Source of the DNA: PVC group bacterium
GTDB taxonomy: Bacteria; GCA-001730085; JADFSZ01
Direction: 5' to 3'
Length of the DNA stretch: 16,276 nt
Assembly: GCA_022560555.1 (NCBI GenBank)
Contig: JADFSZ010000015.1
Coordinates: 1 to 16,276 of the forward strand
Both the position numbers and the translations under genes were made by a program. This document shows, piece after piece, positions 3,619-6,255 of the stretch; the stretch's first letter is position 1; each line of letters begins with the position of its first letter. The notes below the pieces were generated by a model that saw nothing but the letters and a program-made list of their open reading frames with translations, was not told the DNA's origin and searched no databases.

Positions 3619-4194
3619 TTAGCGTATGAGCCTGACACGGTTAAACGGCCAAAAAACAAGAAGCGCCTTCCCTACAAGATTTTCTTTAGGGACAAACCCC
3701 CAATAGCGGCTATCTTTACTATTGTTGCTATTATCACCGAGTACATAATAGTGATTTTCCGGAACATTGACAATCATACCCTCGGCACCGTAAGGCCCGC
3801 GATTATAGTAGTATTTATTTTTAATTTCGTCCATCATCACCATTTCACCGTCAATATAAATATTACCGCCGCGGATCTCGACATTCTCGCCTCCCTTAGC
3901 GATCATTCTTTTGATAAAATCACGCTTAGGATTCACAGGATATTTAAATACAATCACATCTCCCCTCTCGGGCTCCTCAAATTTGTAAGTAAACTTACTC
4001 ACGATAAGACGATCCTTAATCATCAGAGTGGGTATCATGGACCCGGTAGGAATCTTAAATGCTTCAATAACGAAAGTGCGTATAAGCATAGCAAGCAGAA
4101 ATGCTATGATCAGGGCTTCCGCGTATTCACGTACGATACTTTTCCGCTTGGGGTTCGTATCCTTCAAGCCGACTAATTTATCCCGAAGCCACAT
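3619..4194 (-). CDS. lepB: Signal peptidase I (S26 family)
   Basis: 191-aa ORF with an N-terminal TM anchor. It has the catalytic Ser box IPTGSMIPTL, the Lys box FIKRMIAKGGE, and box E GDNSNNSKDSRYWGFVP. It follows lepA, as in the classical lepA-lepB operon. Confidence 0.93.
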   Translation of the reverse strand: MWLRDKLVGLKDTNPKRKSIVREYAEALIIAFLLAMLIRTFVIEAFKIPTGSMIPTLMIKDRLIVSKFTYKFEEPERGDVIVFKYPVNPKRDFIKRMIAKGGENVEIRGGNIYIDGEMVMMDEIKNKYYYNRGPYGAEGMIVNVPENHYYVLGDNSNNSKDSRYWGFVPKENLVGKALLVFWPFNRVRLIR

Positions 4195-4195
4195 T

Positions 4196-4453
4196 TTACT
4201 GACCTTTCACTAAGTAATGGATACAATGGAAGCCTCTATTTGAGCCTGACGCACGGCGCGACAACGACGGCGTATTCAAAGCACTACGTTGAGGAGAAGT
4301 AACACAGAGAACAGGCCAAAGAGAGGCTTCCTCGAAGAGGCTGGCCCCTTTTGAGCTGCGACGGCGTTGCTCGTCGCTTACGTGTTGCCTTGAACACGCC
4401 ACGCTCCTCGTCTCCTTGTCTCGCTTCAAAATTGTCTCAGCCAATGTGCCCAT
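4196..4453 (-). CDS. Doubtful 85-aa ORF spanning the structured element (hypothetical small protein, or a spurious ORF)
   Basis: The ATG at 4453 lies 14 nt after the lepA stop, and the TAA stop ends 1 nt before the lepB ATG (TAAAATG). The product is Ser/Arg-rich with no recognisable domain or TM segment. There is no SD upstream, and the composition is atypical for this genome. I list it only because it fills the gap so exactly. Confidence 0.2.
   Translation of the reverse strand: MGTLAETILKRDKETRSVACSRQHVSDEQRRRSSKGASLFEEASLWPVLCVTSPQRSALNTPSLSRRASGSNRGFHCIHYLVKGQ
4199..4220. repeat. Left arm of the terminal inverted repeat (CTGACCTTTCACTAAGTAATGG)
   Basis: Its reverse complement matches 4450-4471 at 20 of 22 positions. 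It contains the complement of the lepB Shine-Dalgarno (cctttc, 4203-4208). Confidence 0.85.
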
Positions 4454-4471
4454 TATTTAGTAAAAGGTCAG
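4450..4471. repeat. Right arm of the terminal inverted repeat (CCATTATTTAGTAAAAGGTCAG)
   Basis: Pairs with 4199-4220. It contains the lepA stop codon (TGA on the minus strand, 4468-4470). Confidence 0.85.
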
Positions 4472-6255
4472 TTCTCGTCCTTTTTTATCACAGCCATAAA
4501 AGCTTCTTGAGGTATTTGCACCTTGCCGAATTGTTTCATTCTTTTTTTGCCTTCTTTTTGTTTTTCCCAAAGTTTTCGCTTTCTTGTAATATCTCCCCCG
4601 TAACATTTTTCCGTAACATTTTTCCGTAAGGCCTTAATGGTTTCCCTCGCAACCACCCGGGAGCCTATAGCCGCCTGCAGAGAGATTTCAAAAAGCTGTC
4701 TTGGAATAAGACCTTTTAATTTCAAAGCCACTTGACGGCCTTTACTTTCCGCTTCCTTACGAAAAACAATACTGGAAAAAGCATCCACAATCTCTCCCCC
4801 CACCATAATATCCAATCTTACCAAATCACTTTTTCGATATCCGAGATGCTCATAGTCAAGAGATCCATATCCGTTTGTACCGGATTTCAAGCGATCATAA
4901 AAGTCATAGATCACTTCGGATAAAGGCAATTCATACGTTAAAATCACATGCTGTTCATCCATATATTCGGTACTTTTATAGACTCCGCGGCGATCTTGTG
5001 CCAGCTTCATCACCGAGCCCACGGAAGTGACCGGACAAATAATATACGCATGGATGAAAGGCTCCCTTATCTCACGGCATTCGTGCGTTAAAGGCATTTG
5101 GCTGGGATTATAGATCCATAATTCCTTTCCTTTTTCATCTATCACTTGATACGTCACATTCGGAGACGTTGTTATGAGATTGAGACCATACTCTCTTTCC
5201 AAACGCTCCTGAACCACTTCCATATGAAGCAGGCCCAAAAAACCACACCGAAATCCAAATCCGATCGCCGGAGATGACTCCGCCTCATATGTCAGCGAAG
5301 AATCATTGAGCCCTAGTTTCGACAAAGAGTCCCGCAGGGCTTCATAATCCGCCTGATTCACCGGATAGAGTCCTGCGTACACCATGGGATGAATTTTTTT
5401 GTACCCGGGAAATACATTTTTTGTCGGCCGCTTGGAATCCGTAATCGTATCCCCGATCTGAATATCATGGCTATCTTTGATGTTCGCCACAACATATCCC
5501 ACTTCTCCGGCAGACAAAACGTCGGTTTTGACATTCGCAGCCTTAAATATCCCAATTTCTTCCACGCGATATTTCCTCTTTGATTGGATAAATAGAATCT
5601 CCATACCCGCCCGAATAGTGCCATTGACAACACGAATACAAACCACAACTCCACGATAGGAATTGTACGTTGAATCAAAAACGAGAGCTTGCAATTCTTT
5701 TGTTTCGTCTCCAACAGGAGAAGGGATTTCATTAATAATCCGCTCAAGAACACTAGGAATATTCAATCCCTCTTTCGCGCTAATAAGTGTGCACTTGTCT
5801 TCCTCTATTTTTAGAACGTCACGTATTTGCTTTTGGCATAGCTGAATATCCGCAGATTTGATATCAATTTTATTTAGAATAGGAATGATGGTCAGATTTT
5901 GAGCTTTGGCCAAACGGCAATTCACAACGGTTTGAGCTTCCACACCCTGACTAGCATCAATCACCAAAAGGGCGCCTTCGCATGCCGATAAGCTCCGGGA
6001 TACTTCATAGGAAAAATCCACATGCCCCGGGGTGTCGATCAAATTGAGAACATATCCTTTATAATCCAGGCGGATAGCTTTGGCTTTGATCGTAATACCA
6101 CGTTCCCGTTCAATATCCATGTCATCGAGAAATTGTTCTTTAAGTTCTCTGGCAGAGACCGTACTCGTTTCTTCCAATAAGCGATCGGCTAACGTTGATT
6201 TACCGTGATCAATGTGCGCAATAATACAAAAATTCCTGATCTTTGTGATATCCAT
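4468..6255 (-). CDS. lepA: Translation elongation factor 4 (LepA)
   Basis: 595-aa ORF. N-terminus IRNFCIIAHIDHGKSTLADRLLE, then DTPGHVDF and NKIDI G-boxes. The LepA-specific C-terminal domain is present, with ALRKNVTEKCYGGDITRKRKLWEKQKEGKKRMK. Confidence 0.97.
   Translation of the reverse strand: MDITKIRNFCIIAHIDHGKSTLADRLLEETSTVSARELKEQFLDDMDIERERGITIKAKAIRLDYKGYVLNLIDTPGHVDFSYEVSRSLSACEGALLVIDASQGVEAQTVVNCRLAKAQNLTIIPILNKIDIKSADIQLCQKQIRDVLKIEEDKCTLISAKEGLNIPSVLERIINEIPSPVGDETKELQALVFDSTYNSYRGVVVCIRVVNGTIRAGMEILFIQSKRKYRVEEIGIFKAANVKTDVLSAGEVGYVVANIKDSHDIQIGDTITDSKRPTKNVFPGYKKIHPMVYAGLYPVNQADYEALRDSLSKLGLNDSSLTYEAESSPAIGFGFRCGFLGLLHMEVVQERLEREYGLNLITTSPNVTYQVIDEKGKELWIYNPSQMPLTHECREIREPFIHAYIICPVTSVGSVMKLAQDRRGVYKSTEYMDEQHVILTYELPLSEVIYDFYDRLKSGTNGYGSLDYEHLGYRKSDLVRLDIMVGGEIVDAFSSIVFRKEAESKGRQVALKLKGLIPRQLFEISLQAAIGSRVVARETIKALRKNVTEKCYGGDITRKRKLWEKQKEGKKRMKQFGKVQIPQEAFMAVIKKDEN

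Follow-up and report, generated by a model that had tools for sequence, protein, structure and literature searches.

Terminal inverted repeats of a palindromic mobile element pair the lepA stop region with the lepB Shine-Dalgarno sequence in a PVC group bacterium

The stretch of DNA analysed here, referred to as the window, comprises 16,276 nucleotides of contig JADFSZ010000015.1 from a PVC group bacterium (assembly GCA_022560555.1), whose genome (G000) is a 1.66-Mb metagenome-assembled genome (MAG) of 222 contigs, 91.5% complete. Its minus strand carries, in this order, uvrC, lepA, a spacer of 273 nt, lepB, pgsA and der. The lepA gene encodes EF4 (595 aa, 4468-6255, as given in the list of open reading frames (ORFs); TIGR01393 match with 915.9 bits) and at present ends in a TGA at 4470-4468, and lepB encodes a signal peptidase I (191 aa, 3619-4194; TIGR02227 match with 177.2 bits) starting with the ATG at 4194-4192. 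As delimited by full-length alignment, nhmmer and folding, the spacer is occupied on the same strand by a palindromic element of ~273 nt with the core CTGACC...GGTCAG (4199-4471). Its left terminal inverted repeat (TIR), at 4441-4472, contains the lepA stop codon and the motif CCUUUU (4467-4462), and its right TIR, at 4198-4229, contains GAAAGG (4208-4203); the lepB ATG follows 3 nt past the boundary of the element plus T. The motif AAGGA at 4478-4482, probably the original Shine-Dalgarno (SD) sequence of lepB, is located 5 nt 5' of the helix that closes the element and ~275 nt from the ATG. We conclude that the closing helix is the TIR pair of a non-coding mobile element resembling MITEs (miniature inverted-repeat transposable elements), which landed in the lepA stop; taken jointly with the insertion history and the scheme of lepB expression proposed below, this account is in our judgement likely to be correct.

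The sequence-only reading of this locus had proposed that a near-perfect helix of 22 bp or more joins the lepA stop region to the lepB SD sequence. This helix is real, and all the coordinates assigned to it hold on the sequence. A 5' arm reading ACUGACCUUUUACUAAAUAAUGG (4472-4450) and a 3' arm reading CCAUUACUUAGUGAAAGGUCAGU (4220-4198) form a core of 23 bp, in which one position is G-U and another A-C. The duplex energy is -29.2 kcal/mol for this core and -38.3 kcal/mol for the arms of 33 nt. Extended to 4441-4472 and 4198-4229, the arms constitute the top-ranked inverted repeat of the 16-kb window, being 84% complementary over 32 nt with 211 nt between them; beyond 16 bp the helix contains an A-C mismatch and internal loops. 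When the whole spacer was folded on the sense strand, it formed a single long hairpin of -118.6 kcal/mol (z = -7.1; none of 200 shuffles was as stable), the opposite strand being nearly as stable (-105.1 kcal/mol, z = -5.4), and the pairs of the closing helix had probabilities of ~1.0 in the ensemble. A role as intrinsic terminator was rejected, there being no U-run past the 3' arm.

Because the 3' tail of the 16S rRNA reads CCUCCUUUCU, to which GAAAGG is fully complementary, GAAAGG can be taken as a true SD sequence and CCUUUU as a mimic of the anti-SD. The former is spaced 8 nt from the AUG (4202-4195) and the latter begins 1 nt past the lepA stop. In the computed fold both motifs are paired with each other and the unpaired probability of GAAAGG at equilibrium is at most 0.003, which agrees with the earlier claim that the helix sequesters the lepB SD; the geometry by which the lepA termination site is brought beside the lepB start, despite ~270 nt between them, had also been described correctly. 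The assertion that GAAAGG is the sole SD-like motif of lepB stands within 25 nt of the AUG and fails beyond, where AAGGA (4482-4478) is found just 5' of the 5' arm.

The element belongs to a dispersed repeat family. Full-length alignment matched the window copy to 18 relatives of 267-308 nt, most of them of 271-275 nt, found in genomes G009, G044, G045, G074, G083, G104, G275, G281 and G389. Outside the phylum of the window, 10 of 400 sampled genomes, from at least 8 GTDB families, carry the element. Other genomes hold 2-12 copies, with seven full copies in G009 and further ones in its genus-mates G044 and G045, and one copy was detected in the genome of the window itself (nhmmer, 219 bits). 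All hosts are MAGs, where repeats and insertion sequences (ISs) assemble poorly. Across lineages and phyla the interior of the element is conserved at 70-79%, the conserved motifs being GCGACGAGCAACGC, CAAGGAG..GAGGAGCG, CTCCTCCTTGACGTA and CTCAAAT. The terminal 20-35 nt vary in sequence between relatives yet are always complementary, pairing over 20-35 bp in every one of them.

Rfam 15 gave no match to the window, whether searched with the gathering threshold or relaxed to E<=10, and seven diverse relatives of the element gave none at E<=1 except a tRNA. A distant blastn search of the element against plasmids and phages was equally without match, and when the literature was searched for the literal sequence nothing but unrelated primers came up. 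Matches to the pattern GCGACGAGCAACGCNNNNGCAG in genome contigs were saturated by chance in GC-rich genomes, 2 of 119 loci being real (L138, and L057 from an Elusimicrobia MAG); a stricter pattern retrieved from metagenome contigs only this Elusimicrobia locus again, and nothing from viral contigs. With these results the family, which spans several poorly sampled phyla, appears to be undescribed.

The family is mobile. At two sites occupied in G009, the orthologous positions in G044 and G045 have no copy, and comparison of an empty site, AACCTGC-TA-TACTTATTTAT, with its filled counterpart, AACCTGA-TA-[GTGCTC...GAGCAC]-TA-GTCTTATTTAT, revealed a clean duplication of TA, which is clear in one of the three empty/filled orthologous comparisons. 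Four genomes of the same genus lack a copy that in G275 separates a gloB-like gene from xerD; in these four, both genes overlap or sit 3-23 nt apart. Copy number ranges from 0 to 12 among the genomes of this genus. The sites occupied are unrelated housekeeping junctions, such as yjbQ/rsmD, gloB-like/xerD, fxsA/glgB and larE/greA, as well as positions upstream of thrS, trpS, mutS and argD. The family behaves as a MITE, with a size of 273-275 nt, no coding capacity (the ORF that it contains has neither a family match nor a conserved frame), TIRs that in the window extend over the 32 nt mentioned above at 84% complementarity, and target duplication together with presence/absence polymorphism in the relatives, the window copy retaining TA on the right only and AA on the left. 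As to a cognate autonomous IS, no IS630/DDE_3 transposase was found in G000, G009, G045, G104 or G083 (all MAGs; other transposase families were not searched). Nor was an autonomous partner with matching TIRs found, the solo-TIR matches in G009 adjoining secA/lnt and other housekeeping genes. One of these, a terminal repeat of 31 nt between secA and lnt without the remainder of the element (L027, 1501-1531), is probably the remnant of an excised or decayed copy.

The same junction is free of the element in relatives of the same phylum: in G001 and G002, lepA and lepB are separated by 15 nt containing AAAGGA(G). In the window the core (4471-4199) is flanked by AA (4473-4472) on the left and by TA (4198-4197) on the right, which we read as a decayed TA target duplication. 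Since a TA duplication was observed in relatives (G009 versus G044/G045), the core was removed from the sequence together with one dinucleotide, producing ...ATA AAA AAG GAC GAG TAA A ATG. In this reconstruction an in-frame lepA TAA appears where LepA of the relatives ends, followed by 1 nt and the lepB AUG, and the native SD recovers a spacing of 8 nt, AAGGA-CGAGTAAA-ATG. We infer that the element most likely inserted at the TA of the original TAA stop of lepA, inside the spacer between the SD and the AUG of lepB. The original junction, ...AAGGA CGAG TAA A ATG..., would have been tightly coupled, and the insertion would have displaced the native AAGGA 275 nt from the AUG. In exchange, the left repeat would have supplied a new in-frame stop (UGA), LepA gaining one residue, and the right repeat a new SD, GAAAGG, at the same spacing of 8 nt.

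The upstream flanks of several insertions (window 4478-4482 with 4197-4198; L190, L196 and L206) read AAGGAcgag-TA, AGGAGG-TA or AGGAaatga-, and resemble the element's own right end (AAAGGTCAG-TA, AGGACAC-TA). A transposase preferring targets like its own termini could explain the niche in the SD spacer.

Consensus structure and covariation were analysed in an alignment of 19 sequences (A1). The closing helix was retained in the consensus, with compensatory double changes in 23 of 23 pairs and with 90.6% of cells paired, compared to 31-41% when the partner was slid by 1-3 columns. Its G-U and A-C cells are nearly equal in number (11 and 10, respectively), that is, there is no strand bias, which fits inverted repeats maintained at the DNA level and not a strand-specific RNA helix. 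The interior helices gave 54 G-U versus 13 A-C on the sense strand, and 20 versus 13 in the fold of the antisense alignment. A G-U at A1 columns 164:277 is kept in 17 of the 19 sequences; conserved interior G-U wobbles, which would be C-A mismatches on the other strand, were also seen at columns 55:124 and 80:100.

The termini most similar to those of the window copy (ACTGACCTTTTACTAAAT...) belong to the AGTGTCCTGTCTACTAAAT type (AGTGTCC-type subfamily) in the small phylum of G275, in which 5 of 9 genomes have copies and 14 copies were examined. A long ORF starts -1 to +14 nt past the 3' end of the element in 11 of them, and the AGGA of the right repeat then lies 5-18 nt ahead of the start codon (5-11 nt in all but one); at the opposite end, none of the 14 shows an outward-directed long ORF with its start within 40 nt. 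The 11 start-adjacent copies all share one orientation, which is that of the window copy. In 10 of the 11, and in the window, the stop of a co-directional upstream ORF is located -39 to +13 nt from the 5' end. Of 12 start-adjacent copies, 10 have kept an SD-like motif, as read by eye, 2-12 nt ahead of their 5' end. Full-length alignments of the respective protein families are in agreement with the predicted starts, and so is, for xerD, the start at the empty sites. Copies preceding mutS in G275 (L200) and G408 (L199) look orthologous, which leaves ~10 independent insertions plus the window. This pre-mutS insertion is shared by two species of one genus, one copy being of 269 nt and the other of 308 nt; the longer variant has an extra segment of ~38 nt mid-element, as seen also in L178/L206, L201 and L203.

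The layout of the window is thus one instance of a stop-element-start arrangement that recurs in the subfamily. Since the genes downstream of the subfamily copies include trpS, mutS, argD, xerD and rsmD, the helix cannot shut off translation altogether. The other branches (the genus of G009, G104, G083 and G389) have termini without an AGG- or AGGA-type SD motif and are not start-adjacent, several of their copies abutting stop codons. One copy of G275 (L195, 1499-1769) separates thrS from a cluster of four tRNA genes; it follows a tRNA-Val (1802-1878), has no upstream ORF and ends 4 nt before the thrS AUG. Copy L192 has tRNA-like sequence on both flanks, so that some copies reside in the spacers of tRNA operons.

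We infer that lepA, the element and lepB are probably carried on one transcript. No sigma-70-like promoter that could give rise to a separate lepB mRNA was found on the coding strand inside the element, either in the window copy or in two relatives, the promoter type of these phyla being possibly different from sigma-70, and no terminator was found inside it. In such a transcript the repeats would pair and bury the new SD against CCUUUU, and a ribosome finishing lepA would cover or unwind the base of the helix, thereby freeing the SD. We give this RNA-unfolding translational coupling somewhat less than an even chance of being the main route to lepB translation. That a ribosome at the lepA stop would free the lepB SD had been proposed before, and computed unfolding makes this physically plausible. 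With the 5' arm forced open to 4459, a rough footprint of a ribosome with the lepA UGA in its A site, the unpaired probability of AAGG, the four 3' bases of the SD, rises from <=0.003 to 0.83-0.98, whereas the two 5' bases stay mostly paired, reaching only 0.16-0.30. Coupling by unfolding is a plausible consequence of the imported helix, because 10 of the 14 copies with the closest termini show the same stop-element-start layout. It cannot be the only or general route, because the thrS copy follows a tRNA-Val without any upstream ORF. Strong expression of the window lepB may not be strictly required either, since a second signal peptidase I gene is encoded on another contig of the same genome (C99, 4317-4766, minus strand, 125 bits). 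A fragment of a signal peptidase I gene was also noticed at a contig end (C23, 9289-9423, plus strand), and a protein query for contigs encoding LepB gave none on record.

Cleavage offers another way of opening the lepB start. RNase III would cut the TIR duplex of 23-32 bp in the lepA-element-lepB transcript and separate the two cistrons, leaving lepB with a short leader whose SD is released from the 5' arm. Such processing, which the sequence-only reading had also suggested, is a tentative alternative that we think rather unlikely to be the main consequence. The core of 23 bp, extending to 32 nt, would provide about two turns of near-perfect double-stranded RNA, and the genome encodes rnc (249 bits, above the cut-off). 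No upstream translation would be needed, which also accounts for the tRNA-flanked thrS copy, and there is a precedent in the TIR hairpins of Correia elements, which are cut in Neisseria mRNAs (PMC10969869; PMC2649163). On the other hand, the SD at 4208-4203 might be lost or damaged through the cleavage, the helix is interrupted by the A-C mismatch and internal loops beyond 16 bp, and the orientation bias of the subfamily is left unexplained. A quite improbable alternative is that the hairpin is simply looped out as an inert stem-loop, the helix re-juxtaposing the native AAGGA and the AUG at ~8 nt plus one helix end and so restoring the ribosome-binding site (RBS). Small hairpins between SD and AUG reportedly restore the RBS in this manner in phage T4 genes 38 and 25. 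In the window the helix is preceded by AAGGA at 5 nt and followed by the AUG at 3 nt, an SD-like motif survives upstream of the 5' end in the 10 of 12 start-adjacent copies mentioned above, and looping out would also work for the copy between tRNA-Val and thrS. However, with its 275 nt the hairpin exceeds the known examples by far in bulk, those SD-like motifs that survive sit in upstream coding sequence and may simply have escaped decay, and the native SD is dispensable given the one that the TIR itself carries at ideal spacing.

Two further explanations assign a regulatory function to the RNA itself. The element could carry a strand-specific structured RNA, a mobile translational operator, whose interior binds a ligand or protein and controls the opening of the closing helix over the RBS. 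The conservation of the interior across phyla (70-79%) beside variable termini speaks for such an operator, as do the sense orientation of all 11 start-adjacent subfamily copies and of the window copy, and the covariation of interior helices which carry more G-U on the sense strand, one G-U being present in 17 of 19 sequences. Against it, the copies of genus g10 occur in both orientations and are not start-adjacent, the downstream genes have no common function, no Rfam family matches, the G-U counts are dominated by few columns and related sequences, and for the window copy the family consensus fold (-80.1 kcal/mol) is less stable than the single long hairpin (-117.6 kcal/mol). We judge the operator to be about as improbable as the inert stem-loop. 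Possible reasons for the strict orientation, the conserved interior and the excess of G-U are orientation-dependent harm, a single-stranded transposition intermediate linked to the direction of replication, or an RNA function of the sense strand; two copies showed terminator-like hairpins on their antisense strand, which bears on the first of these. The second explanation, implicit in the sequence-only reading, is that the helix is a regulatory device dedicated to the lepA-lepB operon and evolved in place. The very neat arrangement of stop codon, anti-SD, SD and AUG would suit it. We regard it as highly improbable, since the same element, closing helix included, occupies unrelated junctions in other phyla, is lacking between lepA and lepB in same-phylum relatives, shows no strand bias in this helix and has relatives that are demonstrably insertions.

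Several observations weigh against the account of an inserted MITE-like element that we prefer. The element is single-copy in its own genome, and its left flank is AA instead of TA, the target duplication being only half preserved here. Its interior is better conserved across phyla than its termini, which is unusual for a MITE, and an IS630/DDE_3 transposase was not detected in the five host genomes searched. The subfamily's strict orientation and the excess of G-U in the interior helices of the sense strand hint at a strand-specific role of the RNA or of single-stranded DNA. The coupling step in particular is weakened by the thrS copy, for which unwinding by a ribosome arriving from an upstream ORF is not a general way to open the buried RBS, and by the paralog of lepB, with which the expression of lepB at this locus is not guaranteed to be essential.

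Comparison with known small repeats places the element close to several of them. Correia elements (CREE/NEMIS) are likewise small and non-coding, with long TIRs; they insert at TA and measure ~100-155 nt. The window element differs in being larger (~273 nt) and palindromic over its whole length, it has no sequence similarity to them, and its family occurs in several little-sampled phyla, in contrast to the single genus of Correia elements. These are co-transcribed with their neighbours, and their TIRs pair into an mRNA hairpin that is cut by RNase III (PMC10969869; PMC2649163). For the window element such cleavage is a prediction only, and neither a promoter nor an IHF site was identified in it. 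The ERIC/IRU sequences of enterobacteria are, like the window element, imperfect palindromes over their whole length that are found in transcribed intergenic regions and form long hairpins in the mRNA, with effects on the transcript that depend on orientation (for ERIC, the effect on Yersinia transcripts is cited in PMC10969869). ERIC differs in its length of 127 bp and in acting through an RNase E site and mRNA stability, and it is not known to lie between a stop and a start codon or to supply an SD sequence. MITEs derived from IS630/Tc1-mariner elements share with the family the 2-bp TA target duplication and TIRs beginning with (A)GTG..., and the termini resemble ends of the Tc1 type; the difference is that neither a DDE_3 transposase, sought in five hosts, nor an autonomous partner with matching TIRs was found.

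In the known cases of RNA-unfolding coupling (rpmI-rplT, MS2 coat-lysis and f1 VII-IX), the downstream RBS is buried and its partner strand is covered or unwound by the upstream ribosome (PMC12548453). Sequestration of the RBS by a segment that the ribosome covers is found in the window by computation only, as the pairing of CCUUUU with GAAAGG. The distance between stop and start ranges from -50 to +52 nt in the known cases (review PMC12548453), compared to +273 nt in the window, and their structures are native to the operon, whereas that of the window was imported by a mobile element.

The element is spanned by an ORF of 85 codons (4196-4453, minus strand) that begins 14 nt past the lepA stop and ends 1 nt ahead of the lepB AUG. 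It has no family match, its frame is broken in relatives of the element by indels of 1 nt, and an open frame of at least 86 codons occurred in 145 of 2000 dinucleotide shuffles (7%). A role as relay ORF or as a real gene is therefore unsupported, and it is probably a chance open frame. If it were translated, re-initiating ribosomes would unzip the whole hairpin and reach the lepB start.

The left domain of ~105 nt also occurs alone, as a hairpin GCAGAGGCTATTTTGG...CCAAAAGAGCCTCTGC, in Elusimicrobia bacterium GWC2_64_44 (MGUG01000042.1; L057, 441-543). This left-half copy lies just downstream of lepB, with a metF-like gene on its other side, and is oriented opposite to the two genes. Left-half copies are also present in G045 (L160, 723-842; L161, 1501-1611). 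Possibly the full element is made up of two units resembling the left domain.

For the lepA-lepB operon, a proposed regulator specific to it is replaced by a simpler and better-supported reading, that of a mobile element splitting a tightly coupled junction, whose own ends now furnish the stop codon, the SD and the helix hiding that SD. For the family, copies of one branch lie almost exclusively in the interval from a stop codon to the start codon that follows, in a constant orientation, upstream of genes such as trpS, thrS and mutS. It is conceivable, although in our estimation unlikely, that this AGTGTCC/ACTGACC-type branch is adapted to the stop-start junctions of operons, inserting in one orientation into the spacer between SD and AUG, with ends that can supply a stop and an SD-like motif and a terminal helix that rejoins termination site and start. 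It would then act as a portable cassette for coupling or for an RBS, or possibly as a mobile riboregulator, with the conserved interior governing how the terminal helix opens. Should the pattern reflect adaptation instead of mere survivorship, it would illustrate the way in which gene-dense genomes can be colonised by a transposon without polar effects, and would offer a natural system in which to test RNA-unfolding coupling across a linear distance of 270 nt.

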